NCBI GenBank assembly: GCA_963793265.1
Contig: CAWBZI010000006.1
Span: 800,001 to 864,000, forward strand
DNA: 64,000 nucleotides
Direction: 5' to 3'
Source of the DNA: an uncultured cyanobacterium
Lineage (GTDB): Bacteria > Cyanobacteriota > Cyanobacteriia > Phormidesmidales > Phormidesmidaceae
The notes under the pieces were generated by a model. It searched no databases, was not told where the DNA came from, and saw only the letters and a program-made list of their open reading frames with translations. Shown one piece after another: positions 2 through 64,000 of the stretch. Numbering within the stretch: position 1 is the first letter of the stretch; every line of letters starts with the position of its first letter. The translations under genes and the position numbers were made by a program.

Positions 2-1993
2 TTGGAATACGCCCAGTATGCGATTCAAGATGACATTGTGCTACCTGAAGGCTTTACATATGACGTGATTGCCTCTTGGGGAGATCCGGTAGGCGACTCT
101 CGCTTTGGTTATAACAACGACTACCTTTCATTTATTCCAACCGGCCCAGATGAAGGCTATCTAACCGTTAACTTCGAGTACATCAGCACGGAGACGTGGG
201 AGCAAACTTATCCAGAAGTTATCGGCAAGGCTTTGCCTTTTGAAGACGTTAAGAAGGCGGTAGAAAGCGAGGAAGTCGATGCGTTTAGTTTGCCTGACGA
301 TAGCGCACTTAAAGCTCAAATTAGAGAAATCTCAAAAGCAGCGCTGATCGATCAGGGGCTAGGCGTAATCGCTGTGCGCAAATCAGCCGATGGCCAGTGG
401 GCGCGCGTACCTGGCTCAAACGACCGCCGCGTATCAGGCATATCCGGGCTAGAAGATGGCCGCTACTTAAAGACAACTGGCCCCGCAACGGCTGTGTTTA
501 TGAAAAGTGAGGTGACTGGCTACACTGATGGACTAGGCAATAAAGCTATCGGGACTTTTGGCAACTGCGCAGGTGGAACAACGCCTTGGGGAACCGTTCT
601 AAGCGCTGAGGAAAATATCCAAAATCAGGTGCCAGAGGCCGTTCATAAAGATGGGTCTTCTTTTGTACCGGGAGCAAGATCCTTTGATATCGGCTTCGAT
701 GGTCAGGGTAATGTGTTGGGGCTAGCGGGCAATAAATACGGATGGATTGTGGAGATCGATCCAGCGAACGCGGATGACTATGGCACTAAGCACACTTGGC
801 TGGGTCGGTATCGGCATGAGGCGGTAGGCGTGAGAGTTGAGGCGGGGAAGAAGCTGGCGTTTTATTCAGGGTGCGATCGCCGGGGCGGACACGTTTACAA
901 ATTCATCAGCGCTGGCACCGTCACTAACCCAACAGACAAAGCAAACTCCACCCTGCTCTCAGATGGAATGCTCTACGCTGCAAAGCTTAATGCTGATGGC
1001 ACAGGGGAATGGATAGCGCTGAATCCAAGCACGCCTGTAGATCCCGTTTTGCCTAGCGAGGTGATGGGCGGCATGGTGACGTTGCCGAAGCGGCCTGATG
1101 GAGGATTTGAGGAGGTGGAAGATGATGCGATCGCCCTCCAGCTCAAAGAAAAATTCGCCACACTAGGCGATCTTTACGAAGGCAGCGACCTCGAAAAACA
1201 AGGCGCTATCCTCATTGACGCCCACTTCGCAGCCAATGCCGCCGGAGCCACCGCAACGGCTCGCCCAGAAGACACAATCGTTAATTCAGAAGGCACCCTT
1301 TTTATCGCCTTCACCTCTGGCACCCCAGGCGGCGACGGTGGCCCAGACAAAGCCATTTTTATTGGCCCCAACGGCGAATCCGACTACGAAGCTGGCTGGA
1401 TTGTGAAATTCACCGAAACCAACAACGACCCGGCTGCGCTCACCTTCAACTGGGAAAAAGTCGTCGCAGGTGGCGAGCCTACAGACGGCGGCTTTGGATT
1501 TGCTAATCCAGACAACCTAGAGTTCGACAGCAAAGGCAACCTGTGGACAGTCACCGATATGTCTACGAGCACGCACAATAAGCCTGTCCCATCTCAGCGC
1601 AAAGACGAGGAGGGCAAACCCATCAGCGGCAAAGACTTATTGGGGCTATACGGCAATAACTCTCTTTGGCAAATTAGCCTCACGGGTGAAACTGCCGGGG
1701 AAGCGAAAATGTTCGCCTACGGCCCAATGGAATGCGAGCTAACCGGGCCATTTTTTACAGAGGATGATAGCACCCTGTTCATAGCAGCGCAGCATCCTGG
1801 TGAAAAGAACGGTGCGCGTCAAGCGATGGCATCTGAAATCCGCGAGTTTGAAATGAAGACAACCGCAGGGGAAACTTTTTTACAGCGACGTGAGGTGCCA
1901 GTAGGTTCTAATTGGCCTGGTAAAACAGAAAGCTCTTTACCAAAACCGTCAGTAGTCGCAATCAGACGGGCAGCAGGCGGTAGCATAGCTTAA
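2..1993 (+). CDS. phoX: PhoX-family (DUF839) alkaline phosphatase, 5'-truncated by window edge
   Basis: Motifs FGYNNDY, NCAGGTTPWGTVLSAEEN, LGRYRHEA, RPED, NPDNL, ELTGPFF, QHPGE. Confidence 0.9.
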   Translation: MEYAQYAIQDDIVLPEGFTYDVIASWGDPVGDSRFGYNNDYLSFIPTGPDEGYLTVNFEYISTETWEQTYPEVIGKALPFEDVKKAVESEEVDAFSLPDDSALKAQIREISKAALIDQGLGVIAVRKSADGQWARVPGSNDRRVSGISGLEDGRYLKTTGPATAVFMKSEVTGYTDGLGNKAIGTFGNCAGGTTPWGTVLSAEENIQNQVPEAVHKDGSSFVPGARSFDIGFDGQGNVLGLAGNKYGWIVEIDPANADDYGTKHTWLGRYRHEAVGVRVEAGKKLAFYSGCDRRGGHVYKFISAGTVTNPTDKANSTLLSDGMLYAAKLNADGTGEWIALNPSTPVDPVLPSEVMGGMVTLPKRPDGGFEEVEDDAIALQLKEKFATLGDLYEGSDLEKQGAILIDAHFAANAAGATATARPEDTIVNSEGTLFIAFTSGTPGGDGGPDKAIFIGPNGESDYEAGWIVKFTETNNDPAALTFNWEKVVAGGEPTDGGFGFANPDNLEFDSKGNLWTVTDMSTSTHNKPVPSQRKDEEGKPISGKDLLGLYGNNSLWQISLTGETAGEAKMFAYGPMECELTGPFFTEDDSTLFIAAQHPGEKNGARQAMASEIREFEMKTTAGETFLQRREVPVGSNWPGKTESSLPKPSVVAIRRAAGGSIA

Positions 1994-2027
1994 TCTTTGC
2001 ATTAAGCCGCTGTGCTTCTCCCCTGAT

Positions 2028-2669
2028 ATGTCCCTTTCTCAAAAACTCTGGCAGGCAAATCAAGACTTAGCCAAAGCCTCTCTAAACAACCCGTTTGTTC
2101 AGGGCATTAGTGACGGCTCCTTACCTGCCGATAAGTTCGCCTACTACGTCGGACAAGACGCATTCTTCTTAGAATCCTTTGCACGTGCATACAGCGTTTG
2201 CGCAGCTAAAGCGCCTACGTGGGAGAGCTTTCAAACGTTTCATGCCCTAGCAGAAGGCGTTTTACAGGAGCTAAACCTACACAAAAGCTATGCACAGTCT
2301 TGGAACGTAGATATCACAAGCGTTGAACCTGACACAGCCACACGTCAGTACACTGATTTTTTACTGTCAACAGCCTGGAGTCAGCCTATAGCAACAACGG
2401 CTGTCGCCATGTCGCCCTGTATGCGTCTGTACGCCTACTTAGGACAGACGCTTCTCCATAAAAGAGGGACTAACAATACAAATGCCATAGATTCTAATCC
2501 TTATAAAGACTGGATAGAAACCTATGGCAGTGATGATTTTGAGCCTTTGGCCACGCAGCTAGAGGCTATTGTCGATGAGCATTCTGAAGATACGCAGGTC
2601 ATACGCTCAACGTATCGGTATGCGATGACCTGCGAACGAGACTTTTTCCAAGCAGCTTGGCATCAATAA
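2028..2669 (+). CDS. tenA: TenA/thiaminase II family protein
   Basis: NPFVQGISDGSL..FAYYVGQDAFFL, PCMRLYAYLG, YKDWIETY, ERDFF. Confidence 0.85.
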   Translation: MSLSQKLWQANQDLAKASLNNPFVQGISDGSLPADKFAYYVGQDAFFLESFARAYSVCAAKAPTWESFQTFHALAEGVLQELNLHKSYAQSWNVDITSVEPDTATRQYTDFLLSTAWSQPIATTAVAMSPCMRLYAYLGQTLLHKRGTNNTNAIDSNPYKDWIETYGSDDFEPLATQLEAIVDEHSEDTQVIRSTYRYAMTCERDFFQAAWHQ

Positions 2670-2696
2670 ACGTCAGACGCAAGCTACGTGAAAGCC

Positions 2697-2984
2697 CTAT
2701 TCTTCAACGTACATTTCAGGCTCAATGGCAAAGTTATTCATTCGACCTGAGTCATCAACAACAAATCCGCCTGTTGTCTTTAAATCAGAGCCTTCTTCAC
2801 TCTCTTTAGCAGCAGCAATGTCCTCTTTGTCCTCTTCAGGGTGACCGCCGGGCATTGACTTTGTGCCGGGTGGCTGTACGGCGTCACCGACTGGCTGAGC
2901 AACTTGTACGGCCCACTGATCGCCTGCCGCACCTTTTCCAGGTTCTGCTTCAGTTTGGATATTTTCGTTTTGATTAGTCGCCAT
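2697..2984 (-). CDS. Small acidic protein ending in a Psb34/Ssl1498-like motif
   Basis: 95 aa ORF with GGAG RBS; C-terminus DDSGRMNNFAIEPEMY. Confidence 0.65.
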   Translation of the reverse strand: MATNQNENIQTEAEPGKGAAGDQWAVQVAQPVGDAVQPPGTKSMPGGHPEEDKEDIAAAKESEEGSDLKTTGGFVVDDSGRMNNFAIEPEMYVEE

Positions 2985-3107
2985 AAAAAGGGCTCCTTCT
3001 ACTTACGTATGTCATCATCTAACTTAAGAGGAATGAGCTACCTAGCGCGTCTTACGTTAGATGAGCTTTCGTTCTATCAATAGTGATATTTTTACAGCGC
3101 TCGTTTT

Positions 3108-3713
3108 TTAGTTGGGTAGCGCAAAGTCGTAGTGTTCCTTAGCCGTCCACATTTTGCCATCGTACGCTAGCAGCGTAAGCTGATGAACGGTGAAATCGAA
3201 ATGGATTTCTTGGTGTTCAAAAACTGACCACGCCTTGCGAAACATGTTGGGCTTGAGATCGCGGAAGGCGACGGTAAGGTGGGGGACAAATGAGCGGTTG
3301 CGATCGCGCTTACTCACCAACCCAATCTGCTCCTCCAAATAATCCAAGAGCTTAGACTGAACCGTCATCAGGCGATCGCGCTTCACTACATTGATATAAA
3401 TCACGTGCGGCGCAAACGCAGCGAAGCCATTAAGCGTCATTGGAATCGGCGCTTGCGTAGCGGCAAAGGCATTCAACGCGCTGCCAAGGTTAGCGACATC
3501 TCTTACAGGCCAATCGAAAGGAGCTAGTAGGGTGACATGAGGCGGAGAGCGGAAGGCGGCTTTGCTAGCGTAGCGATCGCGCATCACACCTTTTATCTCA
3601 TTCGCCTTTACCCGTACTTCCTCAGGCGGCAGCAGTCCGACAAAAAAACGCTTACAGACTGGCGGCGGTGACTTCGACCTTTCATTAAGTTCCACAGATT
3701 TTTCAATGGCCAT
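3108..3713 (-). CDS. 2H phosphoesterase / 2'-5' RNA ligase family protein
   Basis: Two HxT motifs: PPHVTL and PHLTVA. Confidence 0.85.
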   Translation of the reverse strand: MAIEKSVELNERSKSPPPVCKRFFVGLLPPEEVRVKANEIKGVMRDRYASKAAFRSPPHVTLLAPFDWPVRDVANLGSALNAFAATQAPIPMTLNGFAAFAPHVIYINVVKRDRLMTVQSKLLDYLEEQIGLVSKRDRNRSFVPHLTVAFRDLKPNMFRKAWSVFEHQEIHFDFTVHQLTLLAYDGKMWTAKEHYDFALPN

Positions 3714-3749
3714 AGAATAGTCTGTTTAGAGGAGGCACAAGGAATCGCG

Positions 3750-4037: not shown

Positions 4038-4135
4038 ATCTTAAGACGACGCGATACGAGCGCAGGCTGATGTCAGAAATGGCAGCGAGCCTCTAGACTT
4101 AAAACGCTAAGAACTCTTCAAACACTGACTTCATC

Positions 4136-4627: not shown

Positions 4628-4628
4628 C

Positions 4629-6254
4629 CTACCGCGAATGACCTACCGCGGTTACTTGCAGTGGTTGCTCACAGGTCGCCCGATCAATGGTCGCGACCAC
4701 CTGTTCATAAATGTCCTCAGCTTCTTGCGGCGTGTTGCCAATGCAGGTAAGCCCCAGCTTGCCGTGCTCGCTCAAGCAGCCCATCAGGTGAAACACCACG
4801 CCCACGCCATCAATAGAGCTGAAGTGCAGTTGCTCGCCCATGATGATATCCATCAGGTCGTTAGGCAGTAGCCCTTTGTACGCCTGATTTTGCAGGTTAT
4901 CAGAGGCGCGATAGTATTTTGCCTGACCGTTTTTGGTGTAGAACTTACCGTCTTTGAGGCTGTAAGTCCCATTGGTCAGCAGCTTTAGCGCCATGAATGG
5001 ATGCGTTGTGCCACCTTTGCGTAAGTTGATTTCAATTGCATTCAGTTCCCAAGGATTAGCCACGTTCTCAGGATTATGTACGGCGATAAAGTCTACGCTA
5101 TAGCGCTCTAGTGCGCCTTTGGCTGCTAAGTTCTTGCCCACTTTACGGCCCATATCTTGCAGCGCCATTCGATAGGCGTCAGCAGCCGGGAATGTGCAGC
5201 CTAGAAAGATTTGACCGTCAGGGCCACCTAATACCTGATCATGAGTGGAAAGGATTTCGACATCCCCTTTGGGGGTAACGCGCCCCTGTACGCTTGGGGA
5301 GTATTTTTCCTCGCCTTCGATAAAGGCTTCTGCGATCGCACCCAACTCCTCAATCTTCCGCTCAAACGAAGCCCAAGTCTCGGTATTACACTGAAACCGC
5401 AGCTCAGGCAAAGCCCCTTCAATTGCAGCTACTCGCGCATCGTGACTTGCCTTACCTGGAGCCACATCAGCCAGCGGCTTCAGCGAAAATAGAGCATTCC
5501 CCTCACCCGAGAATCCTTCATTGAGCTTAATGACAATTCGCTGCAACTCGGGCTGTCGCTCCCACAGCGCTGCCGTCACCTCAGACAAGTCCGCCGTGTT
5601 ATGCGTTAGCTCGCTACCGTCTGGCAAAGGCAAACCGCACTCGGTAAAGATCTGACGACTGCCGCCCTTAGTCCCCCAGTACAAAAGATCAGGATTGACC
5701 GCAAGCAAAGGCAAATCTAGCGTGAGCGCCAAGTCCCGCTCTAGCTCGGTAGAGTTGTAGCAGGTCATGTAGGCTTCATCAGGCTTGATTTTGGCTTTAA
5801 TACGCCGCATGAGCCTGGGTCGGGCCAGGATTTTCTCTGAGAGCGGGCGGAGGGAGGAGTCGTAGGTGGCGAAAAGATCGAGGCGATCGCGCGCATGAGA
5901 ACTCGGAATCCCCGGCAGTAGCTCTAGATAATAGTCCACGATGCTCGGATGCAATGGCTGAGACGTGACGTAGATAATCCGCGTCTCTGGATTGCGCAAG
6001 CGGATTAGCGAAAACAGCAGGCGCTCCTCGTAGTGATGAACGCCTTTCACCTTCATCAGCTCAGCCTGATCGAGGCTCAGCGAAGGCACTACTAAAATTT
6101 GCCGGGGCTGTCGGTCAAAATCATCAATCGATCGCCATCGGTTAGGCAGCTCGGCCTGCAATCGCAAAAACTTTTTGGCAATCTCATCGGTATCAGCTTC
6201 CAGGCTACTTGCTGAAATATGATCTTGACGAAAAGGTGCTTCAGCTATGGCCAT
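4629..6254 (-). CDS. PGM1-related ATP-grasp peptide ligase
   Basis: HYEERLLFSLIRL, KLNEGFSGEGNA, SPSVQ, EINLRKGGTTHP; ATG at 6254 preceded by GGAGG. Confidence 0.8.
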   Translation of the reverse strand: MAIAEAPFRQDHISASSLEADTDEIAKKFLRLQAELPNRWRSIDDFDRQPRQILVVPSLSLDQAELMKVKGVHHYEERLLFSLIRLRNPETRIIYVTSQPLHPSIVDYYLELLPGIPSSHARDRLDLFATYDSSLRPLSEKILARPRLMRRIKAKIKPDEAYMTCYNSTELERDLALTLDLPLLAVNPDLLYWGTKGGSRQIFTECGLPLPDGSELTHNTADLSEVTAALWERQPELQRIVIKLNEGFSGEGNALFSLKPLADVAPGKASHDARVAAIEGALPELRFQCNTETWASFERKIEELGAIAEAFIEGEEKYSPSVQGRVTPKGDVEILSTHDQVLGGPDGQIFLGCTFPAADAYRMALQDMGRKVGKNLAAKGALERYSVDFIAVHNPENVANPWELNAIEINLRKGGTTHPFMALKLLTNGTYSLKDGKFYTKNGQAKYYRASDNLQNQAYKGLLPNDLMDIIMGEQLHFSSIDGVGVVFHLMGCLSEHGKLGLTCIGNTPQEAEDIYEQVVATIDRATCEQPLQVTAVGHSR

Positions 6255-6433: not shown

Positions 6434-6496
6434 CGATTCACTTAGGTGAGCCGAGGACAACGGCTAAGGAAACATGAAAAAACGGAAAGTCTAATA

Positions 6497-10134: not shown

Positions 10135-10644
10135 ATGACAGCTACGATTCAGACAAAGGCGATTCAGGTAGAAACGATTGTAGATGGTGATGCGGTAGAG
10201 CAGGTGCCAGGAGTAGCGATCGCCTACTACCAACACTGGCTCCACACCTGGCTAAATGACCTATCTATCCAACTCTCACCCATCAACGCCTACGAAGTCA
10301 GCCTTCGCCTCACCACCGACGCCGGAATTCAGCAGCTAAACACCGACTACCGCCAGCAGGCAAAACCCACTGACGTATTATCTTTCGCCGCTTTAGAAAC
10401 TAATATTCCAGGTGCAGGCGTCCTACACGCTCAACAGCCTCTATACTTAGGCGACATCATTATCTCCGTCGAAACCGCCGCCCGTCAGGCTCCCACCCAC
10501 GACCATTCCTTACCCCAAGAAATGGCTTGGCTCACGGCCCACGGACTCCTTCACCTGCTAGGCTGGGATCACCCGGACGAGATAAGTCTGGTGCGAATGT
10601 TAGATCGGCAGGCGCAGCTACTCCAATTGATAGATCTCTCCTAA
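10135..10644 (+). CDS. ybeY: rRNA maturation RNase YbeY
   Basis: PTDVLSF, LGDIIIS, HGLLHLLGWDH. Confidence 0.95.
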   Translation: MTATIQTKAIQVETIVDGDAVEQVPGVAIAYYQHWLHTWLNDLSIQLSPINAYEVSLRLTTDAGIQQLNTDYRQQAKPTDVLSFAALETNIPGAGVLHAQQPLYLGDIIISVETAARQAPTHDHSLPQEMAWLTAHGLLHLLGWDHPDEISLVRMLDRQAQLLQLIDLS

Positions 10645-16275: not shown

Positions 16276-17409
16276 TTACTTTTTCTCAGGATGTTCGACC
16301 GCCTCGCAGGCAGTGCCCAACTTACCTAGAAAGTGAATCATCTGATGCAAACGTCCGGCATCTCGCTGATTGAAGTGAAGCGCTAGCCGAGGCAAATTTT
16401 CAGTTTCATCGCCGCGCTCTACGTCAAAAGCTGACACCTCTCTAATCGTGCCTTTACTCAAGATGTCAGCAAACTTCGCATTAAGCTGATCAATGCCACC
16501 TTCACTCAGCGGTGCCTTGAGGCGAATCACAAGCTGACCACGTACGTATCGGCTAGAGTGATATACCCGGTAGAAGCTTTCGACATAGTTTAGGGCGTCA
16601 TCTAGGCTATCGGTTAGGTGATACAGACTGGTGTCATCAGGGCTGATCAGTCCTTGGTCGAGAAGACGGTTGCGCACATAGTAGTCCCAGCTCTTCCAAT
16701 ATTCACCGCCGGGTCGGTCGATGAGAATGAGTGGAATGGGATCGGACTTTCCGGTTTGGATGAGGGTAAGCGATTCAAAGGCTTCGTCTTGGGTGCCAAA
16801 GCCGCCGGGGAAAAGGGCGATCGCATCACTCTCTTTTAAAAAGAACAGCTTGCGCGTAAAAAAGTATTTAAAGTCCAGCAGCTTAGGATCGCCTGCCATC
16901 ACCGGATTGGCACCTTGTTCAAACGGAAGCTGAATGTTCAGCCCGAATGAATAATCACGACTGGCCCCTTCGTTGCCCGCTTGCATGATACCGCCACCCG
17001 CCCCGGTCATCACCATAAAGCCGTGCTGCACCAGCCGACGCGCAAATTCGGCGGTCATTTGGTATTCGGGGCGATCGCTAGGCGTTCGAGCAGAGCCAAA
17101 GATCGTAACCTTACGAGTGTGCCGATACGGAAAGAACGACTTAAAACCCTTCTCCATATCCATGAGTGAATGGCTTAATATTTTCCAATCTAAAGGCTCT
17201 GCCTCTTGAGTCGCCATCCGCACTAAAGTCTCAAGAATCTCCTTAATTAGCCCACCGCTTTCCATCGTCGGCAGTTGATCCATCACACGCAGCAGGTCAC
17301 CGCGCAGTTGATTATTCAACGGCGAACCTGAGCCCTGATCCGAGCTGCGATCTGAATATTGAAAAGGAGAAACGTCCATCATGTACGTATGTAAAGAATA
17401 TTCGTTCAC
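16276..17409 (-). CDS. LOG family protein
   Basis: VTIFGSAR, TGAGGGIMQAGN, FFTRK, FPGGFGTQDE. Confidence 0.88.
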   Translation of the reverse strand: MNEYSLHTYMMDVSPFQYSDRSSDQGSGSPLNNQLRGDLLRVMDQLPTMESGGLIKEILETLVRMATQEAEPLDWKILSHSLMDMEKGFKSFFPYRHTRKVTIFGSARTPSDRPEYQMTAEFARRLVQHGFMVMTGAGGGIMQAGNEGASRDYSFGLNIQLPFEQGANPVMAGDPKLLDFKYFFTRKLFFLKESDAIALFPGGFGTQDEAFESLTLIQTGKSDPIPLILIDRPGGEYWKSWDYYVRNRLLDQGLISPDDTSLYHLTDSLDDALNYVESFYRVYHSSRYVRGQLVIRLKAPLSEGGIDQLNAKFADILSKGTIREVSAFDVERGDETENLPRLALHFNQRDAGRLHQMIHFLGKLGTACEAVEHPEKK

Positions 17410-32159: not shown

Positions 32160-32348
32160 ATGTCTGTAATTTTTCAGCTAACCCTGTTTGTTTTAGTGCT
32201 TTGGTCCTTCGTTATGATCATAGGCGTTCCGGTCGCCTACGCCTCACCTAGCAACTGGGAACAGTCTAAGCGTTTGATTTTCTTAGGCTCAATCGTTTGG
32301 GGCGTGCTGGTCGTGCTGGTCGGTGGACTCAACTATTTAGTTGTATAG
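32160..32348 (+). CDS. psbZ: Photosystem II protein PsbZ
   Basis: 62 aa, two TM helices, [12 protein letters not shown]. Confidence 0.95.
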
Positions 32349-33071: not shown

Positions 33072-33092
33072 GATTGAACGTCAAAAAGACAC

Positions 33093-33164
33093 GCGGATGT
33101 AGCTCAGTGGTAGAGCGCGACCTTGCCAAGGTCGATGTCGAGAGTTCGAATCTCTTCATCCGCT
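33093..33164 (+). tRNA. tRNA-Gly(GCC), CCA not encoded
   Basis: Cloverleaf: GCGGATG/CATCCGC acceptor, GCTC/GAGC D-arm, CGACC-TTGCCAA-GGTCG, TTCGAAT T-loop. Confidence 0.97.
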
Positions 33165-49097: not shown

Positions 49098-50579
49098 ATG
49101 ACTTCTTTACAAATCGGAGCCACCAAACGTTCGTCAAAACCAGCGACACGCTCTCAGCTAGTAGAGAGGCCGCTAGTAGACGCCGCGCTACCTACAGCAG
49201 GTGATGAAAGCAACGCTACCAATAGCAGGCTGTCAAAGTCAGCCATTCGTAAAAGTCTTAAAGGCTCTACGCTCGACGGCACGTTCTCTTCAGTCTTTGA
49301 GAACGTCGTTAAAGGGGTGCTGATTAGCAACTTTTTGCTAGGACTTGGTGCAGGTGCTTTTGAAGTAGGTTTGCTGACGTCTATTCCGATGATGGGTCAT
49401 CTGTTGCAGCCGCTAGGGGCTTACTTTTCTGAGAAGACAACCAGTCGTCACAATTACTGTCTGTGGATTTATGGCATTGCGCGCGTACTGTGGCTGCTGC
49501 CAGCGGCAGGCATTTTCCTTTACAGCAACGGTACGATCACCGCTCACGTTCTTACGATTTTGACAATGATCGTGCTGACTATCAGCAACATTTTGGAGTC
49601 AATAGGCTCTGCGTCCTGGATGAGCTGGATGGCAGTGCTGGTACCCGGAAAGCTGAGAGGCCGCTACTTTAGTTTGAGGCGATCGCTCTCTAGTCTCACC
49701 GCTTTACTCACCATTCCAATCGGCGGCTGGCTTGTCTCGCAGTGGATGGGCGGTGAACTTGAAGGCTACGGCGTCGTTCTGATTATCGCGGTGCTAATGG
49801 GCTTAGTGAGCTTAGGCTTTCAATTCTATATGAGCGATGTTAATCCACAGGCTGAGAAGGCGGCGGTTGCGCAAAAGGCACAGACAGTAGCAAAGGCTAC
49901 TGGCGATGATGAGCGAGATTCAGGCTTGCTTAAAGACAAGAACTATCTCACGCTGCTGCTGTTTTTAGGCATATGGACATTTGGGGTGAACCTGAGTGCA
50001 CCCTTTTTTAACTACTACCTACTCGATAAGCTCCATTTGGATGTGCAGTGGGTGACGATTTACAGCAGCTTGAGGTATGGCGCATTCTTTCTAGCAATTA
50101 TGCTGTGGGGCCGACTGGCTGACAAAATTGGCAATCGCCCTGTTCTTATCATCAACTGCGTACTGGCGGCTTCGGTTCCTTTGATTTGGAGCTACACAGA
50201 CGGCGGTATCTCGTGGGTTTGGATAGGACTGCCACTGCTGCACCTGTTACAGGGTGGTAGTTTTGCAGCACTAGAGCTTTGTTTGGCGAATATTCAGCTT
50301 GAGCTAGCGCCTATCGGCAAGCAGTCGAGCTATTTCGCGATCGCTGCTGCCGTTATGGGCATCACAGGCGCACTCGGCACTACCGCAGGCAGCATGTTAG
50401 CCGAACTCTCTACCGTTGGCTTGCCTGCTCTGTTCGCGGTTACGGCTGTTGTACGGCTTGCTTGCATCACACCTTTGCTATTTGTGAAAGAAGGTCGGGC
50501 GCGCTCGGTGCGATCGCTCCTAGAAAAATATATAAAGCGCGACGCTAAAGCATTACAGCCCGTTAGAGTCAAAGCCTAA
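49098..50579 (+). CDS. MFS transporter
   Basis: About 12 hydrophobic segments; WMSWMAVLVPGKLRGRYF, WGRLADKIGNR. Confidence 0.88.
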   Translation: MTSLQIGATKRSSKPATRSQLVERPLVDAALPTAGDESNATNSRLSKSAIRKSLKGSTLDGTFSSVFENVVKGVLISNFLLGLGAGAFEVGLLTSIPMMGHLLQPLGAYFSEKTTSRHNYCLWIYGIARVLWLLPAAGIFLYSNGTITAHVLTILTMIVLTISNILESIGSASWMSWMAVLVPGKLRGRYFSLRRSLSSLTALLTIPIGGWLVSQWMGGELEGYGVVLIIAVLMGLVSLGFQFYMSDVNPQAEKAAVAQKAQTVAKATGDDERDSGLLKDKNYLTLLLFLGIWTFGVNLSAPFFNYYLLDKLHLDVQWVTIYSSLRYGAFFLAIMLWGRLADKIGNRPVLIINCVLAASVPLIWSYTDGGISWVWIGLPLLHLLQGGSFAALELCLANIQLELAPIGKQSSYFAIAAAVMGITGALGTTAGSMLAELSTVGLPALFAVTAVVRLACITPLLFVKEGRARSVRSLLEKYIKRDAKALQPVRVKA

Positions 50580-50645: not shown

Positions 50646-53006
50646 ATGGTTGCGACTTCCGGTGAGCTGACTACTGATAGTAGAGTTGAAGACAAGCTAG
50701 CGAAAGAAACGCTAGCCGAAGAAAGGGCCGTACTGATTCAGCAGATAGTCAATAGCCTGCGGCCAGGACAGAAGTCGCTGGCACAATGGCACTCTGGGCC
50801 GCTAGCGGTTTCGGCAGTACCGGGTTCTGGTAAGTCTACTGGGATGGCAGCAGGCGCTGCGATTGCGATCGCCCAGCACCAGCTCCACGCCCGCAAGCAG
50901 CTCGTACTCGTCACCTTCACCCGCTCAGCAGCAGCAAACCTCAAGGCTAAAGTACGTCAGCATCTCAAAGCGCTTTCTCTGCCCCTCAACAGCTTTGTCG
51001 TCCATACGCTCCACGGCCTCGCGCTCAACATTGCTAGCCGCCATCCCGAAGTCTCAGGCATCAACCTTTCGCCCTTAGACTCGGAAGGGACAACGCTGGT
51101 TTCTCCGACGCAAAGTCACCGACTCATTCGCACGGCAGTAGAACGCTGGATTGAGGAAAGCCCGGCGAGCTATCAGCGGTTGATTGAGGGCAATAGCTTT
51201 GACGGGGAAGAGACGGAGCGCTTGCGCAGGCAGTCTGTATTGCGCACAGAAGTATTACCCGCGCTGGCCTACACCGTTATTCACGAAGCCAAAAGCTCAG
51301 GGTTACTCCCTGAAGCCTTAAGTGACGTTGCTCAGACGATGAGAATTAGCGTACCGGAAGGTAGTGCTGATTATGATGTGGTTGCGATCGCGGCCAATCT
51401 ATACGCTCACTATCAAACGCTGCTAACAGACAGAGGGCTAATCGACTACGACGATATGATCCTCGCAGCGCTGAAGACGTTGGAAGAACCCGCAATTCGG
51501 CAAATGTGGCAGAGTCGGGTGTTCGCAATTTTTGAAGATGAGGCGCAGGACTCGTCGCCCTTGCAGACGCAGCTATTAGAAGTGTTAGCAGCAAACCCAG
51601 AGGATTCGAGCGCGCCTGTGAATCTGGTGCGCGTGGGCGATCCGAATCAGGCCATTAACTCTACGTTTACGCCTGCCGACCCGGTGTTTTTTAATCAGTT
51701 TTGCGATCGCTGCCAGGAACTCGGACGGCTCGCCAGTATCGAACAAGCTGGTAGAAGCTGCGCAAGCATTATGCAAGCAGCCAACTTCACGCTTCACTGG
51801 GTTAATAAAAACGGAGCGCGGCAAGCCTTTCGCAGCCAGGATATTCTGCCGGTTGGCCCCAACGATCCACAGCCAGATGCCAATCCTGATCCAATCGGGG
51901 AAGGCGTAGAGCTAGTCAGACCCAAGACGACAACCGACGCTGTAAGGCAGCTCGCCAGAAGAGTTGTCGATGCCTTCAAGGAGAGTAGAGACACTAGCGC
52001 GGCGGTGTTGGTGAGAGAGAGCCGCCAGGGAAAGTTTTTGCGAGAGATATTAGAAGATCCGCAGCGCTTGGGATTTGATTTTGAGGCGACGGGGATTGAA
52101 ATTTATGACGTGGGGCAGCGCGATCGCAAAAGCCACATCCCCCGAGAAATCCTCGACCTATTGCAGTTCATCGAACGCCCGCACTCTCCCGACAACATCA
52201 AAGCAGCTCTGCGCGTACTTGTCTCCCGGCAGCTTGTACCCACTCAAGATCTCAACCCGCTCGCCACAAATCCAGAGCAATTCCTTTATCCTGGCCCACT
52301 AGACGCACCGCCCAAAACGACTGCTGCCCAACAGGCCCGTCGCTACTGCGCCGCCCTCATCCGGGCTCGATTGGAGCTGCCTGCCTATCATCTCATTCCT
52401 TTTCTTGGGCTCACCCTCGGCTACGACCAAAGCGAACTTGCTACCGCCGACAAGCTCGCCGCCCGCATCGCTCAACAAACCATGGAAGACAGTACCCTTA
52501 CCGCCATGCTAGGCGTGCTGCAAGAGCTTTTAGGCTCTGAACGCTTCCGCGCCGTAGAAGCTGAGGATACCGAGTCGCAATACACGCAGCCCGGTCAGCT
52601 CACTATCATGACCATGCACAAAGCAAAAGGCTTAGACTGGGACGCTGTTTTTCTACCTTTCCTACACAAGCGCAATATCCCCGGCGACGCCTGGGTTCCA
52701 CAGCAAATGCAGTTTCTCGGAGACTTCGCCCTAGATGAAGTCGCTCGCGCCCAGCTCCGCGCGCATACTCACGCCGTCTACGCACAAGATCACAAACCTG
52801 ACCCTATTCCTAATATCGAAGACGCCTGGCAACAGGCCAGCAACCTCAAACGCGCCGAAGAATTTCGCCTGCTCTACGTCGCCATGACCCGCGCCAAAAA
52901 GCTGCTGTGGATGTCCGCCGCAAAGCAAGCGCCGTTCACCTGGAGCAAACCCGAAAATCTGCAAGATTCAGAAGCCTCGCCTATCTTCACAGCCCTTCGT
53001 CAGTAA
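50646..53006 (+). CDS. UvrD/Rep-family SF1 helicase
   Basis: AVPGSGKS, TFTRSAA, DEAQD, VGDPNQAI, TMHKAKGLDWD, EEFRLLYVAMTRAK. Confidence 0.92.
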   Translation: MVATSGELTTDSRVEDKLAKETLAEERAVLIQQIVNSLRPGQKSLAQWHSGPLAVSAVPGSGKSTGMAAGAAIAIAQHQLHARKQLVLVTFTRSAAANLKAKVRQHLKALSLPLNSFVVHTLHGLALNIASRHPEVSGINLSPLDSEGTTLVSPTQSHRLIRTAVERWIEESPASYQRLIEGNSFDGEETERLRRQSVLRTEVLPALAYTVIHEAKSSGLLPEALSDVAQTMRISVPEGSADYDVVAIAANLYAHYQTLLTDRGLIDYDDMILAALKTLEEPAIRQMWQSRVFAIFEDEAQDSSPLQTQLLEVLAANPEDSSAPVNLVRVGDPNQAINSTFTPADPVFFNQFCDRCQELGRLASIEQAGRSCASIMQAANFTLHWVNKNGARQAFRSQDILPVGPNDPQPDANPDPIGEGVELVRPKTTTDAVRQLARRVVDAFKESRDTSAAVLVRESRQGKFLREILEDPQRLGFDFEATGIEIYDVGQRDRKSHIPREILDLLQFIERPHSPDNIKAALRVLVSRQLVPTQDLNPLATNPEQFLYPGPLDAPPKTTAAQQARRYCAALIRARLELPAYHLIPFLGLTLGYDQSELATADKLAARIAQQTMEDSTLTAMLGVLQELLGSERFRAVEAEDTESQYTQPGQLTIMTMHKAKGLDWDAVFLPFLHKRNIPGDAWVPQQMQFLGDFALDEVARAQLRAHTHAVYAQDHKPDPIPNIEDAWQQASNLKRAEEFRLLYVAMTRAKKLLWMSAAKQAPFTWSKPENLQDSEASPIFTALRQ

Positions 53007-53008: not shown

Positions 53009-54517
53009 CTAATCCATCTGCTCGTCTTGCGCCTGCATCAAAATTTCTTCAAAGCAGGCTTCACCAATCGTCGTCGCTGGCGTATCAGGATCGTCAAATA
53101 GAAATTCACCAATCGCTCGCACTTCTTCGACTGGCTTGTTAAAACTGATCCGCTTACTCTGAGCAACCTGCGGCGGCGAGGGGAGGTTAGGAATGTACCG
53201 TTGCTCAACAGCCATTTTTTTATCTTTTACCGCTGTCCAAAGTGAGGGGCTGCTGGCCTTACTGCTTGACTTCTTTTTAGATGAGCCGTTTGAAGAACTG
53301 GCCTTGACCAAAGTATCGCCTTCATCGACCGCTTTGACCTTTTCAAACATAGACGTAGGATCATAGGCTTTAGCGCTTTGCGTTCTCTGCTTTTCTTCTT
53401 TGGGCAGTCGCTTCCACTGACTCGTGTATGTCGTAAACAGCCGCATCCCCTCCCGCATTCGTTCTTTAATATGCAGATACAGTTCTGAAGAGGCATCAAT
53501 ACCGCGCTTGGTGGTCGTAATTGGGAGCTTTCGAGCATCGGTACTGTTAAAGCGCACAATGCCTGAGATAGAAATGTACTGAGGATGATATTTCGGAACG
53601 CCTGCTTCGCCCCATCCGGTCAAAATAGTTTTGTCATTAGCAACGACTACGCGATCGTTACAAACAATCGTCCAGCCCGCCGTATCTCGCTTGCGTCGTT
53701 TCTTTGTCTCAGCATCAATGACTTCTTCCTCGCTCGGCAGCGCCCGATGAAAGCCGACAGCAACGGTGACTTCTACGTCTTCTTCGTAGCCTTCGTATAG
53801 GTAGGGAGCGATCGCCTCAGCATCTTTCTTCTTCAGCTTGGTAATTCCCTCCCACTGCAACACCAGCGGCCTCGCCTTCACTAGCTTGTTATTTACCGAT
53901 ACTTCAAAGCCTTTAGCAATGATGTAGCTGTAGAGCGATTCAATTTCTTGAGCAAGTTCTGCCTGAAAAGACTTAGCCGCAAGCTGACTAGCAGCCTCGT
54001 CGCGCATCTCCAAAATTTCAACCACCGTACCGTTCCTATCCAAAGACGGCTTGATAGTCTGCAAGGGCAGATCCCAAGTCTCGTCACTCGTCAGCCAATC
54101 CGGCTGAATGAGCACCTTAAAAGCATCAGATTCGGTTTGAGATACGACTTGAGCAGATCGCCCCATCTTAAAAATGGCTCGCTTCATACCGATGCCATAC
54201 GTGCCAATCGTGGCAATATCGTCATCGTCAGTAATGTTTCTAGGCTTGCCCATCCTGAAGGCATATCGCTGAGCAACCTCGAGCGGAATGCCGCCGCAGT
54301 TATCCGATATTCTGAAGCCCTTTTCTGAAAGTTCTAAACTTGCCCAAAAGCCTTCGTATGGCGTTTCCGAAGGTTCCCTGTCCCGAATCGTTCGCTGAAT
54401 GCCATCTATACAGTTGTCTAAAAGATCGAGGATGGCATCTTTGAGATCGATGTCTCGCGTCAGCATCTCTACAAAGAAGTTTTTAGTCGGCGCGGCATTA
54501 ATCGAAGTTGGGGCCAT
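53009..54517 (-). CDS. GHKL (MORC-like/HATPase_c_3) ATPase with S5-like second domain
   Basis: DLLDNCID (N box), DNCGGI (G1), GTYGIGMK (G2), GTVV; GWTIVCNDRVV, LPITTTKRG. Confidence 0.82.
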   Translation of the reverse strand: MAPTSINAAPTKNFFVEMLTRDIDLKDAILDLLDNCIDGIQRTIRDREPSETPYEGFWASLELSEKGFRISDNCGGIPLEVAQRYAFRMGKPRNITDDDDIATIGTYGIGMKRAIFKMGRSAQVVSQTESDAFKVLIQPDWLTSDETWDLPLQTIKPSLDRNGTVVEILEMRDEAASQLAAKSFQAELAQEIESLYSYIIAKGFEVSVNNKLVKARPLVLQWEGITKLKKKDAEAIAPYLYEGYEEDVEVTVAVGFHRALPSEEEVIDAETKKRRKRDTAGWTIVCNDRVVVANDKTILTGWGEAGVPKYHPQYISISGIVRFNSTDARKLPITTTKRGIDASSELYLHIKERMREGMRLFTTYTSQWKRLPKEEKQRTQSAKAYDPTSMFEKVKAVDEGDTLVKASSSNGSSKKKSSSKASSPSLWTAVKDKKMAVEQRYIPNLPSPPQVAQSKRISFNKPVEEVRAIGEFLFDDPDTPATTIGEACFEEILMQAQDEQMD

Positions 54518-55022
54518 GGCGATGAACGGTTGAAGTGATGTCTTTGCTATAAACCTTATCGCAGCGTTCCGTTTCTACACCGCTCATTGGCTGATAGCCA
54601 TTCTTTTCATACAGCCGGACGGCTTCTTTTAAGGCAGTGGCTGTTTCTACCCAGGCTTGAGAGAACCCGTTAGCCGCTGCCGCCTGCTCTAACTGAGCCA
54701 GCAAAAAGCGGCCTAGTCCATAGCCCCGAGCTTCAGGTAATAGATACATTTTTCGGATTTCAACCGCTTCTTTTCCCCGCTCAATCGGATGATAGCCTCC
54801 TGTGCCAACGATTTTGCCTGATTGCTCAACGACCCAAAACTCGCCGCCCGCTTCCAAATAGTATTTTTCGACTTCTACCGCATCTTGGTCGCTACAGCCG
54901 CCGCAGCTTACTTCCCAGCCGAGTCCGTATTCGGCTAGGACAGTTTTGATGACATTAGCGGCAGCGGTGCGATCGCTCGCCACCCAATCTCGAATCAAGA
55001 AATTCCTAAACCTAATCCGCAT
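54498..55022 (-). CDS. GNAT N-acetyltransferase
   Basis: EIRKMYLLPEARGYGLG, AVRLYEKNGY. Confidence 0.9.
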   Translation of the reverse strand: MRIRFRNFLIRDWVASDRTAAANVIKTVLAEYGLGWEVSCGGCSDQDAVEVEKYYLEAGGEFWVVEQSGKIVGTGGYHPIERGKEAVEIRKMYLLPEARGYGLGRFLLAQLEQAAAANGFSQAWVETATALKEAVRLYEKNGYQPMSGVETERCDKVYSKDITSTVHRHGPNFD

Positions 55023-56158: not shown

Positions 56159-56167
56159 AACAGTGCG

Positions 56168-57815: not shown

Positions 57816-57825
57816 GAGATAGGCC

Positions 57826-60476: not shown

Positions 60477-60806
60477 CAGGACAGATTGTGTAGGGTGGGC
60501 AAACTTAGGAACACACTTTCTGTAAAAGGCTACGAATTCACAACAGAGACATCCGGCACTTTACCGAAGCCGTCTGCTGACAATGAAGCACTCTAAAAAC
60601 TTAGATATTGTGTGCAGAACGATTAATAGGTTAGTAACGAAGGTTTGAAATATGAGTCAGAGATGTAGGCAAAAACGGACTGAACGCACCTGATTAGAAG
60701 GGTTTGAACGCCATTTAAAGCCTACTGGGCGACAGTATACCCCTTTACAATCTACCTAACGTATGAAAAATATCAACAATCCCTCATACGAATTAATGAG
60801 AAAAAG

Positions 60807-60852
60807 CAAAAGACCTCAGGCACGCCGGTAGAAACATGTCTGAGGTCTTTTG
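60807..60852 (-). terminator. Terminator downstream of glyA
   Basis: AAAAGACCTCAGGCA/TGTCTGAGGTCTTTT. Confidence 0.8.
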
Positions 60853-60882
60853 ACTATTCTTTTGCTTTATAAGAAGCAGTGA

Positions 60883-62166
60883 CTACACCAAAGCAGGCTC
60901 GGCAACCTGCAAATGAGGGTACAGCGGGAATCGATCGCACAAGTTCAAAACCCGTCGCTTGCAATCATCACCCACCGAACTATCCTCTGGATTGAGCAAA
61001 CAATCAGCAATAATATTCGCAATCTCCGTAAACTCGGACTCACCCATGCCTCGAGTGGTCATCGCAGGCGTGCCTAAACGCAAGCCGCTGGTTACAAACG
61101 GAGACTCAGGGTCAAACGGCACCGTGTTTTTGTTAGCTGTGATATTTACCTGGCTCACCAAAGCATCTGCAATTTTGCCGGTCATGTTAATAGAGCGCAA
61201 ATCCATCAGCACCAGATGGTTGTCGGTACCGTCAGACACTACCTTAATGCCTCGCTTTTGAAGCTGAGCAGCGAGCGCCTGTGCGTTCTTAATCACCTGC
61301 TGGCAGTAGTCCTTAAACGATGGGCGCAAGGCTTCACCAAAGGCAACAGCTTTGGCCGCAACAACATGCTCTAAGGGGCCACCCTGACTACCAGGGAAGA
61401 CGGCCTTATCAAACTTTTTACCTAAATCTGCATCGCGGGTCATAATCAAACCGCCGCGTGGGCCGCGCAGCGTTTTGTGGGTCGTAGTGGTAACTACGTC
61501 ACAGTGAGGCAGTGGGTTGGGGTGGAGGCCAGTGGCAACCAGGCCCGCAATGTGAGCGATGTCGGCCATGAGATAGGCACCGACTTCATCTGCGATCGCC
61601 CGAAACTTCTCAAAGTGAATCGTCCGCGGATAGGCCGAATAGCCGCAGATGATCATCTTTGGCTTGTGCTCTAAGGCAATGGCTCGAATCTCGTCAAAAT
61701 CTAGCTGCTCGGTTTCACGGTTAACGCCATACTGCACCACGTTGAACCACTTACCCGAAAAGTTCACCGGAGAGCCGTGCGTGAGGTGCCCGCCGTGAGA
61801 TAAGTCCATGCCCAAGATAGTATCGCCGGGCTTGAGTAGCGCTAAGAACACCGCAAAGTTTGCCTGTGCGCCTGAGTGAGGCTGCACGTTGGCATGGGCT
61901 GCGCCAAAAAGCTTCTTCACCCGGTCAATCGCAAGCTGTTCAGCCTGGTCAACAAATTCGCAGCCGCCGTAGTAGCGCTTAGTCGGCAGACCTTCTGCAT
62001 ATTTGTTGGTCAGCACAGAGCCCTGAGCAGCCATTACGGCTGGTGAGGTGAAGTTTTCGCTAGCAATTAGCTCCAGGTGAGTTTGCTGGCGATTTAGCTC
62101 CTGGCCCATAATGGCCGCTAGCTCTGGATCTTCCTGCTGCAAAAAGTCAATATTGGCCTTACTCAT
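60883..62166 (-). CDS. glyA: Serine hydroxymethyltransferase
   Basis: [32 protein letters not shown]. Confidence 0.97.
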
Positions 62167-62645
62167 CTACTCAAGTCCTCTGGCAATTCATCTGGCAATT
62201 TAGAACATTTATGATAGCGCCTTGTAACCCTGAAGCTGCGGGCGATCGCGCATAAATTCTATGAGTAAACAGAATGTAACCTGATGCGGAAGCTGGATAG
62301 ATTGCCCTAAGGGTGCCAAATTGTAACGCTTTGAAACATATAATAGAAAAATTAAGCATTGCTCAGGATCTATCGACTGTTCAGGCCACACACATGTAGC
62401 CCTGAAGCGATGAGCCCGAAGCTGCTTTTTGAGCCGCTGCCCTGTTGGCATCACCAAAACCTCTGCTGTAATCGTCGCTACACTAGCTAGCCCCACGGCC
62501 CTGTTGGCGTATAAAGTAATGAAAGCGATTCGCTCGGTACACACTTGTTTGCCCGGTTTCAAATGTTACCCGACGCGGTTAATACATCAGAGATTCTGCC
62601 AAAATTAGCGACTTGCCACTGTTCATTTTCCAGTTTGAGGCATTG

Positions 62646-63584
62646 ATGCTGCAACTGACCCATCCTTCCACTACCACCCCCGCTCCTAGATTTGTGTCAC
62701 TTGAGGAGTCTTACGAGCGATGTCGTCAGATTACGGCAGAGTATTCCAAAACGTTCTATATGGGAACGCGGCTGATGCCAGAGGCCAAGAGCCGGGCTAT
62801 TTGGGCTATTTACGTATGGTGTCGCCGCACCGACGAACTCGTTGATGGCCCTCAGGCCAAATTCACCACTGAAAGCACGCTGGACCATTGGGAATCTCAG
62901 CTAGAGTCTTTGTTTTTAGGCCATCCTAAAGACGATTTAGACGTAGCGATGGTCGATACAATTGACCGCTTTGAGCTAGATATTCAGCCCTTTAGAGACA
63001 TGATTGCAGGTCAGCGAATGGATCTGCATCGTTCGCGCTACGACACGTTTGATGAGCTAAAGCTGTACTGCTACCGCGTTGCAGGCACGGTCGGGCTGAT
63101 GTCTACGACGGTGATGGGCATGGATGACAGCGTGAATACGGCTCCCTGGCAGCGAGAAAACCCGGCACTGCCGCCCATTCCAGAGGCGGTGTCTTTGGGT
63201 ATGGCTAACCAGCTTACGAATATTTTGAGAGATGTTGGGGAAGATGCTCGGCGCGATCGCATATACCTACCGCTAGAAGACCTGGCGCTGTTTGACTACA
63301 CTCAAGAAGATCTGTTCAACAGCGTGATTGACGATCGATGGAGAGCATTAATGCGCTTCCAAATTCAAAGAGCGCTCAAATATTATCAAGAAGCTGAAAG
63401 TGGCATTGGCCGGTTGCATCCTGACGCCCGCTGGCCGGTGTGGACGGCGCTAATGCTGTATCGCAAAATCTTAGATGTGATTGTTGAAAACGATTACGAC
63501 GTGTTCAATCGCAGGGCATTTGTGCCTAAAGCGCGGAAGTTTGTGTGCCTGCCCCAGGCGTTGATCAGGGCTCGCATTTCGTAG
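62646..63584 (+). CDS. crtB: Phytoene synthase
   Basis: SKTFY, CRRTDELVD, YCYRVAGTVG, NQLTNILRDVGED, RIYLP. Confidence 0.95.
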   Translation: MLQLTHPSTTTPAPRFVSLEESYERCRQITAEYSKTFYMGTRLMPEAKSRAIWAIYVWCRRTDELVDGPQAKFTTESTLDHWESQLESLFLGHPKDDLDVAMVDTIDRFELDIQPFRDMIAGQRMDLHRSRYDTFDELKLYCYRVAGTVGLMSTTVMGMDDSVNTAPWQRENPALPPIPEAVSLGMANQLTNILRDVGEDARRDRIYLPLEDLALFDYTQEDLFNSVIDDRWRALMRFQIQRALKYYQEAESGIGRLHPDARWPVWTALMLYRKILDVIVENDYDVFNRRAFVPKARKFVCLPQALIRARIS

Positions 63585-63605
63585 CGGCTGGTCGATATAG
63601 CGATC

Positions 63606-63643
63606 AAAAAAGGCCATCTACCTATTGAGTAGATGGCCTTTTT
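63606..63643. terminator. Bidirectional terminator
   Basis: AAAAAGGCCATCTAC/GTAGATGGCCTTTTT. Confidence 0.88.
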
Positions 63644-63680
63644 GCTAATTCAGCACTGGTTCAGCTTTGAGAGTTCAGCG

Positions 63681-64000
63681 CTAAGAGGGCGTGGTTTGCG
63701 CAGCCAGCATTTCTTTGAGCTTGGCCAAGTCTTGTGCCCAGCGCGGATCGGGCTCAGCCGACGCTGATTGGGTTTCGGAAGCAACGGCTGTGTTGCCGCC
63801 GCGACGGTTGCCGCCTTTTTTAGACTTGCGATCGCCACCCGACTCGCGTCCTGCGGCAGGGACATCTTCTTTTTCAGTGCGCGGCATGGCCTTTTCGACC
63901 TTCAGCGTTGCGTCTTGCAGCGTAAATCCGTTGTACTTCTCTACCAGCGCATCTGCAATCTCATCGGTTTTAGCCGTCACGAAACCGAAGCCGCGACACT
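63681..64000 (-). CDS. RRM RNA-binding protein (Rbp3-like), 5' end outside window
   Basis: Frame continues to the edge with RNP1 CRGFGFVT; C-terminal PDPRWA..L..LKEML. Confidence 0.85.
   Translation of the reverse strand, partial: CRGFGFVTAKTDEIADALVEKYNGFTLQDATLKVEKAMPRTEKEDVPAAGRESGGDRKSKKGGNRRGGNTAVASETQSASAEPDPRWAQDLAKLKEMLAAQTTPS

Follow-up and report, generated by a model that had tools for sequence, protein, structure and literature searches.

A G/C skew that changes sign at HIP1 palindromes in an uncultured cyanobacterium, and two models of the process behind it

We analysed the flanks of HIP1, the octameric palindrome GCGATCGC, in a 64,000-nucleotide (nt) stretch of DNA from an uncultured cyanobacterium (hereafter the window) and throughout the genome to which it belongs. 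On each strand the DNA is G-rich 5' of HIP1 and C-rich 3' of it. This skew is confirmed as real, and it is stronger than was noted in the preliminary description of the window. The footprint is large and apparently unpublished, and it surrounds a motif that has had no agreed function for three decades according to the accessible text of two reports (PMC13756078, PMC5861425). No published report of a HIP1 flank skew was found in a search that left most subscription papers and supplements outside. The terms "skew" and "asymmetr" are absent from the main texts, in their accessible form, of Elhai 2015 (PMC4390886) and Xu 2018 (PMC5861425), and "skew" in the accessible text of PMC13756078 (2026) refers to sampling only. 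The genome (G000) is 5.68 Mb in size, the window lies on its contig C6, and its genus is by inference Phormidesmis, the nearest named MutS matches (86-89%) being Phormidesmis records.

The HIP1 sites of the window, and the three that had been counted by hand in the preliminary description, are as follows.

873..63835, no strand: 64 HIP1 sites, 58 of them G-rich on the left and C-rich on the right, 5 opposite and 1 tied.
3260..3347, inside minus-strand gene 3108-3713: HIP1 3300 with its 40-nt flanks, left 19G/6C, right 2G/16C.
10176..10263, inside plus-strand gene 10135-10644: HIP1 10216 with its flanks, left 17G/4C, right 5G/15C.
52080..52167, in plus-strand gene 50646-53006: HIP1 52120 with its flanks, left 16G/5C, right 6G/14C.

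The sites leaning the opposite way are those at 3372, 36302, 51703, 58128 and 62242, and the tied site is that at 17071. When the 40-nt flanks of all 64 sites were pooled, 839G/501C were counted on the left and 494G/811C on the right. The hand counts at 3300, 10216 and 52120 were reproduced exactly, and the gene strands that had been given for the example sites agreed with the gene calls made here. The listed examples showed the pattern, with one correction of position, the site placed at 50864 starting at 50865. The look was not an artefact of picking by eye, as it is found at 58 of the 64 window sites and at 5,945 of the 6,888 HIP1 sites of the genome, compared with 3,263 of 7,000 random positions.

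Averaged over the whole genome, the antisymmetric skew at 6-40 nt from HIP1 was 0.185 (nominal z 92). Of all 256 palindromic octamers none approached HIP1 in significance; the runner-up by z was ATCGCGAT (0.106, n=298), which may overlap HIP1 and was counted with such overlaps kept. Genome-wide, CGATCG outside HIP1 gave a skew of -0.008 (n=484), and the 7-mers GCGATCG and CGATCGC, which match HIP1 at seven of eight positions, were flat at 0.006 and 0.019. GATC outside CGATCG gave -0.012 (n=8,894), so that GATC alone carries no signal, and the first-position variants of HIP1 lying far from HIP1 gave 0.012, -0.004 and 0.000. The full HIP1 octamer is required for the skew.

Genes were called with our own dicodon caller (5,258 genes, 86% coding), which placed 6,381 HIP1 sites in genes and 507 in intergenic DNA. 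At four-fold degenerate sites, read on the coding strand, the skew at 1-5 nt was +0.65 before HIP1 and -0.61 after it, and at 31-40 nt it was still +0.40 and -0.40. These values were alike in plus- and minus-strand genes, which upholds the earlier claim that the skew is independent of gene orientation, and the shift was seen in all eight four-fold codon families and in both two-fold classes. A codon or amino-acid artefact was rejected on the four-fold sites, the eight families and the two strands. The skew thus persisted when all sites were averaged, was not equalled at control octamers and not only survived control for codon context but became larger under it, the three points at which the preliminary description had expected it to fail if it was spurious. 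Codon positions 1 and 2 shift less near HIP1 than silent positions do, and still enough to change protein composition: 5' of HIP1 there is more V, E, M and G, and 3' of it more T, N, I, H and P, so that amino-acid use is partly set by the distance to HIP1.

Read on the strand 5' of HIP1 and with the favoured base first, allele biases were 1.08 for G over C, 0.61 for G over A, 0.59 for T over C, 0.53 for G over T, 0.44 for A over C and 0.09 for T over A, with base preferences of about +0.5 for G, about -0.5 for C, and T about equal to A. Since G is favoured about as much as C is disfavoured and purines are gained, transversions are involved. The G+C content near HIP1 is slightly raised, not lowered. 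Intergenic skew has the same sign and is far weaker (ln G/C 0.09-0.32, compared with 1.00 at four-fold sites), even beside conserved HIP1; because this class is partly constrained and contains uncalled gene ends, its weakness was not taken as discriminating.

The decay length, left to be measured in the preliminary description, resolved into three scales: the best fit consisted of three exponentials of about 5, 63 and about 1,000 nt, with the bulk of the signal within about 60 nt of HIP1 and a tail of about 1 kb. When a linear sawtooth between neighbouring HIP1 sites was used as the long term, the fit was close to that of the 1-kb exponential and slightly worse; a pure linear sawtooth was rejected (-lnL 254937, compared with 252788 with two exponentials). 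Left and right amplitudes were equal (0.89 and 0.87) over 40 genome segments whatever the background skew, and no leading/lagging strand dependence was found with regional skew as a proxy for replication direction. A cruciform or mRNA hairpin between the flanks was rejected, mirror complementarity being 0.254 compared with 0.255 in shuffled flanks, as was helical phasing, with no clear 10.5-nt period. The largest dinucleotide residual in the flanks was GA over TC. Extension of the palindrome was avoided at flank positions 1-3 over all HIP1 sites (0.193 at position 1, compared with 0.265 expected).

As G000 has no close relative among 45 congeners (best 81% on the query), rates were taken from another Phormidesmis triplet, using 225 gene triplets from G004, G007 and G009 (congeners 83-86% identical, with 355-375 called genes per genome). 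All three genomes had 186 of the 262 in-gene HIP1 positions in common. At shared sites the log odds ratio (lnOR) was 2.0-2.2, at private sites it was 0.73 +/- 0.30 (n=22) and at strict gains 0.49 (n=16); the private-site positions gave 0.67 in the genomes without the site. At 54 sites lost in one genome the loser still showed 1.31. Losses of HIP1 were mainly C2>T, and GTGATCGC far from HIP1 retains a skew of 0.126. We infer that the HIP1 site precedes the skew, which comes after. Genome G007 is losing HIP1: it accounts for 32 of the 54 single-genome losses, mostly C2>T, and in it GTGATCGC is threefold commoner than in its sisters.

Substitution rates were estimated on the 5' strand within 70 nt of conserved HIP1, relative to far sites, with 12 bootstraps, in which the log multipliers had standard deviations of 0.05-0.09 (transitions) and 0.15-0.7 (transversions). 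At four-fold sites A>G (1.53), C>T (1.20), T>G (1.77), C>A (2.2) and A>C (1.5) were raised, C>G (1.0) was unchanged, and T>C (0.68), G>A (0.85) and G>C (0.35) were lowered. With four-fold and two-fold sites pooled over 0-70 nt, the values were 1.41 for A>G, 1.42 for C>T, 0.73 for T>C, 0.84 for G>A and 0.33 for G>C. The total rate near HIP1 was about unchanged (0.99-1.03). Polarising substitutions with relatives, a check proposed in the preliminary description, thus revealed shifts in both directions, and raised and lowered rates with an almost flat total point to one strand winning mismatches, not to added damage. It is probable that the strand 5' of HIP1 keeps its base, chiefly in G-containing mispairs, and this is common to the two models considered below.

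A fixation bias (two parameters and a scale) and a strand choice (seven parameters) were fitted to the pooled sites with Akaike information criterion (AIC) values of 123605 and 123607, and a second pooled pair gave 128698 and 128695; these scores do not separate the two, and a free model did better than either. Models allowing only increases or only decreases were poorer at a local baseline of 0.95-1.15. The increase-only model was best at a baseline of 0.85 or less and is still close at the control baseline, measured as about 0.91; because of that value its exclusion is not firm by score, and rests on T>C and G>C lying far below the baseline. Far sites in HIP1-bearing genes diverge slightly above average. 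The earlier idea of a strand-asymmetric process running outward from HIP1 is supported, as the skew follows the site in time and ignores both gene strand and regional skew; a plain mutational scar of damage or error-prone synthesis is less supported. The biases of the allele pairs rank with mean mismatch-stability differences of 2.34, 1.62, 1.62, 1.29, 1.29 and 0.16 kcal/mol (GC, GA, TC, GT, AC and TA, in which only four pairs are independent).

Among cyanobacteria, the G/C lnOR was positive in all 31 Phormidesmis genomes sampled (0.46-3.15), and the cultured Leptolyngbya sp. BC1307, of the same genus, gave +1.94 +/- 0.24 on locus L106. Of 15 HIP1-bearing genomes from other families, 12 were weakly positive (0.02-0.72) and 3 were zero or slightly negative, and pooled Coleofasciculaceae loci gave -0.39. 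Genomes G029 (194 HIP1 sites) and G032 were flat and had no C5 methylase match; G062 and G064 have a homologue of the C5 methylase described below and a G/C skew of only 0.19. In a genome rich in GGGATCCC, no G/C skew was found at GGGATCCC (40 sites). As a second measure, GnnGnnG was counted against CnnCnnC at 15-21 nt 5' of HIP1, the frame-matched baseline being 1.38 in G000. This ratio was 3.1-3.6 in Phormidesmis, 3.3-5.5 in genus g20, 2.0-2.7 in 12 of the 13 genomes counted that have a long ComEC, and 1.2-1.3 in G192 and G029; three genomes with fewer than 20 pattern matches were dropped, related genomes are not independent, and the values for sister genera are pattern counts only. The Nostoc mutS loci offered too small a number of sites (207 near and 536 far). 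A faint flank skew is widespread, and the strong form marks part of the Phormidesmis family. The footprint therefore holds for Phormidesmis and some sister genera and not as a uniform property of HIP1, since it varies by lineage.

At Nostocales and Coleofasciculaceae loci an A-rich 5'/T-rich 3' flip was seen at HIP1 (T/A lnOR about -0.5 to -0.8), with the G/C flip weak or absent, and the spectrum of the skew may differ between lineages. Variants of HIP1 at the first or last position were scarce in four Phormidesmis genomes (0.11-0.20 per HIP1), and over 17 genomes a low ratio of such outer variants went with a strong skew (Spearman -0.74; -0.43 and not significant without Phormidesmis).

The process at HIP1 appears to lie between two testable models, conversion in heteroduplex and directed repair. 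Our tentative first choice, to which we would give somewhat less than an even chance, is that the skew reflects biased gene conversion in heteroduplex begun at HIP1. HIP1 would start homologous strand exchange with the strand 5' of it as the donor, and the donor strand would win G mispairs (G:G, G:T, G:A) more often than C-containing ones. The first step, retention of the 5' strand at mismatches, would be shared with directed repair and is the one judged probable above. The second step is the weak link, in that incoming or sister-strain DNA would have to form the heteroduplex in which the mismatches arise. With RecA loaded on it, a 3' end at HIP1 would then initiate the tract, and G-mispairs or G-rich donors would pass more readily. 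We lean slightly towards this model over directed repair because of the two-way rates, the strain tracts lying by HIP1, the published rise in integration with HIP1 and its co-occurrence with pilus genes. According to the accessible text of the reports concerned, a homologous HIP1 lifts transformation or integration up to about 100-fold in PCC 7002, where deletion of addAB left the HIP1 effect in place (bioRxiv 2024.09.10.611283), HIP1 co-occurs with type IV pilus genes (PMC13756078), and RecA filaments at low RecA are most stable on TGG and least stable on CCA (PMC3763553). More doubtful is a wider version of the conversion model, in which HIP1 would be a palindromic recombination entry for short-tract conversion: donors would end at HIP1, tracts of about 60 nt to 1 kb might stop at the next HIP1, and a G-over-C drive would rewrite silent sites and amino acids genome-wide.

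Conspecific contigs from coded runs (X1, X2 and so on) differ from the window in short same-frame clusters, mostly at third positions, as would be expected of imports. The following intervals are concerned.

53720..53815: six same-frame X1 variants at 53720-53807, the last adjoining HIP1 53808-53815, among the variants listed.
53816..54976: interval between HIP1 53808 and HIP1 54969, with at least 13 X2 variants at 54065-54281.
49553..49686: six-variant cluster in X1, X2 and X4, ending 77 nt left of HIP1 49679, among the variants listed.
32181..32228: six-variant cluster 337 nt from the nearest HIP1.

A HIP1-sparse stretch held 22 variants and one cluster, the one 337 nt from HIP1. A contig of run X2 stops 9 nt past HIP1 52120, and another stops 3 nt past HIP1 53808-53815, at 53818, the next X2 contig starting at 54969, which is the next HIP1. 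Contig ends fell within 15 nt past an included HIP1 in 6 of 107 cases, compared with 1.6 expected. In a 99.8% pair of metagenome contigs (L184/L210), five of six clusters lay within 125 nt of HIP1. Among the variants listed, 8 of 12 pooled clusters lay within 130 nt of HIP1 (3.8 expected, P 0.012) and 9 of 12 within 200 nt (P 0.019), and single variants were not enriched near HIP1 (6 of 35, 7.6 expected). In one 98% pair, third-position differences numbered 9 of 170 within 50 nt and 20 of 1,203 farther away. At 33092-33149 of the window a depth spike and several loose contig ends in runs X1-X3 were observed, which suggests a short repeat also present elsewhere.

A number of observations weigh against conversion. 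The cluster at 32181..32228 is a counter-example, the clusters of another region, that of HIP1 53808, were drawn from 40 listed of 165 variants, and within 60 nt the pooled clusters among the variants listed were not significantly enriched (3 of 12, 2.1 expected). The cluster and contig-end tests are post hoc, and low coverage also breaks contigs. Of four more diverged pairs one alone had a distinct excess near HIP1, and three other close pairs gave no clean enrichment, L195/L197 being flat, L216/L217 mixed and L191/L193 lower near HIP1. Between species, changes near HIP1 did not cluster by lineage (ratio 1.02, confidence interval 0.98-1.06, compared with 1.05 far away). At four-fold sites alone strand choice (AIC 88174) was ahead of fixation bias (88179), and a free 12-rate model was better than both, the rises of A>C and C>A being unexplained. 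Within allele pairs, the bias did not follow nearest-neighbour thermodynamics (r -0.06 for G/C, -0.04 for G/A and -0.12 for T/C), the correlation being weakly positive only for G/T and T/A, and the RecA-type motif TGG was without excess in the flanks beyond single-base effects. The transformation evidence from PCC 7002 concerns a genus other than Phormidesmis. A search of G000 with the PD-(D/E)XK nuclease family PF12705, the sole subunit searched, returned short frames only (284, 199 and 241 amino acids (aa)), none of RecB or AddA size.

The accessible text of PMC4390886 describes Elhai's hypothetical mismatch repair directed by G-meC at HIP1, and a one-way, polar version of it is the strongest rival, a real possibility that we hold a little less likely than conversion. 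After a nick at (hemi)methylated HIP1, the strand leaving the site would be excised 5'->3' and synthesised anew; a misinserted G or T would be removed on the leaving strand and survive 5' of HIP1, and each mismatch would be contested by the HIP1 sites on its two sides. The equal fit of strand choice and fixation bias suits such repair, as do the mirrored complementary pairs at four-fold sites (A>G 1.53 and T>C 0.68; C>T 1.20 and G>A 0.85), although once two-fold sites are added the mirror pattern is no longer ahead of fixation bias. A G:G mispair on the leaving strand would give G>C, and no change is reduced further than this one (0.33-0.43), but A>C is up where a decrease is predicted, and a protection-only model fits worst except at a local baseline of about 1.3. 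The 1-kb or between-site sawtooth component and the lack of tract clustering between species are also consistent with repair, but the signal lies mostly within about 60 nt, and MutSL repair tracts are longer than this.

Gene content likewise cuts both ways. MutS and MutL are present in G000, and the C-terminus of MutL carries EQHIAHERVLYE and CPHGRP, which together we take to be the nuclease-type motif of MutL; no match was found in G000, which is 99% complete, to MutH (PF02976), Vsr (PF03852) or NucS/EndoMS (PF01939). A genus-wide C5 methylase could mark the site.

G000 C4:631026-632336: C5 methylase, with homologues in six of six congeners searched (about 70% or more) and three of three Nostocales (50-58%).

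Judging from homology and the C2>T decay, this methylase is the putative CGATCG enzyme, and its use as a query gave no match in 15 of 16 genomes of other families. That HIP1 decays chiefly by C2>T, and that HIP1-rich G029 and G032 lack both a C5 methylase match and the G/C skew, argues for repair; the slight skew of G062 and G064, which have the homologue, and the flatness of Elhai's 7-mer G-mC sites argue against it.

It is improbable that breaks or nicks at HIP1 are resected and that damage then leaves C>T, C>G/A and A>G on the exposed, single-stranded DNA 5' of HIP1, like that around meiotic hotspots. In favour of this, a 3' overhang that stops at HIP1 would account for the polarity, the rates of A>G, C>T and C>A are up, the 5' strand is especially poor in TC, and the increase-only model would be the best at a baseline of 0.85 or less. 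Strand-asymmetric C>N and A>N are found at human hotspots in the accessible text of PMC7615360. The control baseline is about 0.91, however, far sites in HIP1-bearing genes diverge slightly above average, and no such baseline is as low as the rates of G>C (0.35) and T>C (0.68). Moreover G+C near HIP1 is not lowered, and the four-parameter damage model was 25-29 AIC units worse than the fixation and strand-choice models.

We consider it just as improbable that selection maintains G-rich then C-rich flanks for protein binding, DNA uptake or hairpin/mRNA structure. Fixation-type rates cannot separate selection from conversion, and the far weaker intergenic signal (ln G/C 0.1-0.3, compared with 1.0) and the shifts in amino-acid use are in keeping with it. 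The flanks have no mirror complementarity, however, and are depleted of it at positions 1-3; the skew runs smoothly over hundreds of bases without a dominant motif or clear 10.5-nt period, the bias against C is about as large as that for G, and sense and antisense strands behave alike. That HIP1 arises at pre-existing G-to-C switch points, or that the skew is a codon artefact, is largely refuted and very improbable: private sites retain a small skew (0.49-0.73 +/- 0.3; non-carriers 0.67), and the G/T-rich islands at E. coli Chi are reportedly due to codon usage, but conserved sites stand at 2.0-2.2 compared with 0.5-0.7 at new ones, control words are flat, and the skew changes sign inside genes, at four-fold sites, in every one of the eight codon families and on either strand.

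Several other features of these genomes were observed. Competence genes DprA and ComEC are present in G000.

G000:C6:84222-85778: ComEC gene, about 520 aa in Phormidesmis.

ComEC frames are 426-614 aa in all 27 congeners with a match and are short also in genera g20, g22, g23 and g27, compared with about 730-850 aa in most other cyanobacteria. Family members with a short ComEC had a median HIP1 skew of 3.2, compared with 2.1, an association that probably reflects one clade and that genomes with an independently shortened ComEC do not share. ComEC length as a general predictor was unsupported outside one family (G192 1.20; G234 2.24 compared with G181 2.10). The C5 methylase match of G007 is truncated and the G020 copy has an internal stop. 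Two more C5 methylase genes of G000 (C4:93031-94081 and C1:809848-811017) appear split or interrupted, and at L234:1486-3249 (G000:C1) a C5 methylase overlaps a probable HNH-type nuclease gene, assigned to HNH by eye; the two are likely a restriction-modification pair. CCCGGG (6 copies), ACTAGT (22), GGCGCC (9) and CCTCGAGG (1) are nearly absent from G000, a scarcity suggesting restriction-site avoidance.

With the footprint, the process at HIP1 can be assigned a polarity, a length scale, an octamer requirement, a base-pair spectrum and a strongest lineage, all of which are testable. It also means that the distance to a DNA word partly sets codon choice and amino-acid use, which is relevant to analyses of codon bias, selection and skew in cyanobacteria. 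Should the wider version of the conversion model be correct, it would be a motif-anchored conversion bias of a sort not known from bacteria, and the clade in which it is strongest is one whose ComEC channel is shortened as well.

Comparison with known systems shows partial likenesses. In replication-associated GC skew, G-C changes sign at a fixed point, whereas at HIP1 it flips at thousands of sites about 0.8 kb apart, with equal amplitudes whatever the regional skew. Very-short-patch and NucS/EndoMS repair differ in that Vsr and NucS have no match in G000. Dam/MutH repair is similar in its MutS and MutL, but differs in the lack of a MutH match and in that GATC alone is flat. The presence of DprA and ComEC recalls DNA-uptake-sequence systems. 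GC-biased gene conversion raises forward rates and lowers reverse ones with an unchanged total, alters amino-acid use and fades from its initiation site. The HIP1 skew shares these features of rate, amino-acid use and decay, but favours G over C on one strand and not G+C over A+T, and is tied to a motif in a bacterium; the fixation bias characteristic of such conversion fits the rates here, inseparably from strand-choice repair. As at human meiotic hotspots, a mirror-image spectrum surrounds a sequence-specified site, but there, in the accessible text of PMC7615360, rates rise over about 2 kb, whereas at HIP1 the total is about flat, with some rates lowered, and the chief length scale is about 60 nt.

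In the accessible text of three reports HIP1 is taken for an uptake signal or a site resembling Chi (bioRxiv 2024.09.10.611283; PMC13756078; PMC5041463). Like Chi of RecBCD/AddAB, HIP1 is an over-represented octamer with its G-rich side 5', where RecA loads at Chi, and it stimulates homologous integration according to the text available. Unlike Chi, it is palindromic and acts on both strands without replication orientation (0.89 and 0.87), its G-richness survives codon control, and its effect in PCC 7002 persists without addAB in the accessible text of bioRxiv 2024.09.10.611283. With Elhai's model, as given in the accessible text of PMC4390886, the footprint shares HIP1 as a strand signal, a CGATCG methylase (of the DmtC/XorII group in that model, putative here), the absence of MutH and a reach of about 1 kb, matched here by the component of about 1,000 nt required besides those of 5 and 63 nt. 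It differs in that the 7-mer G-mC sites held there to be active are flat here, that the outer variants said there to be common are rare here, and that the flanks have a polarity, which the accessible text of PMC4390886 does not predict.

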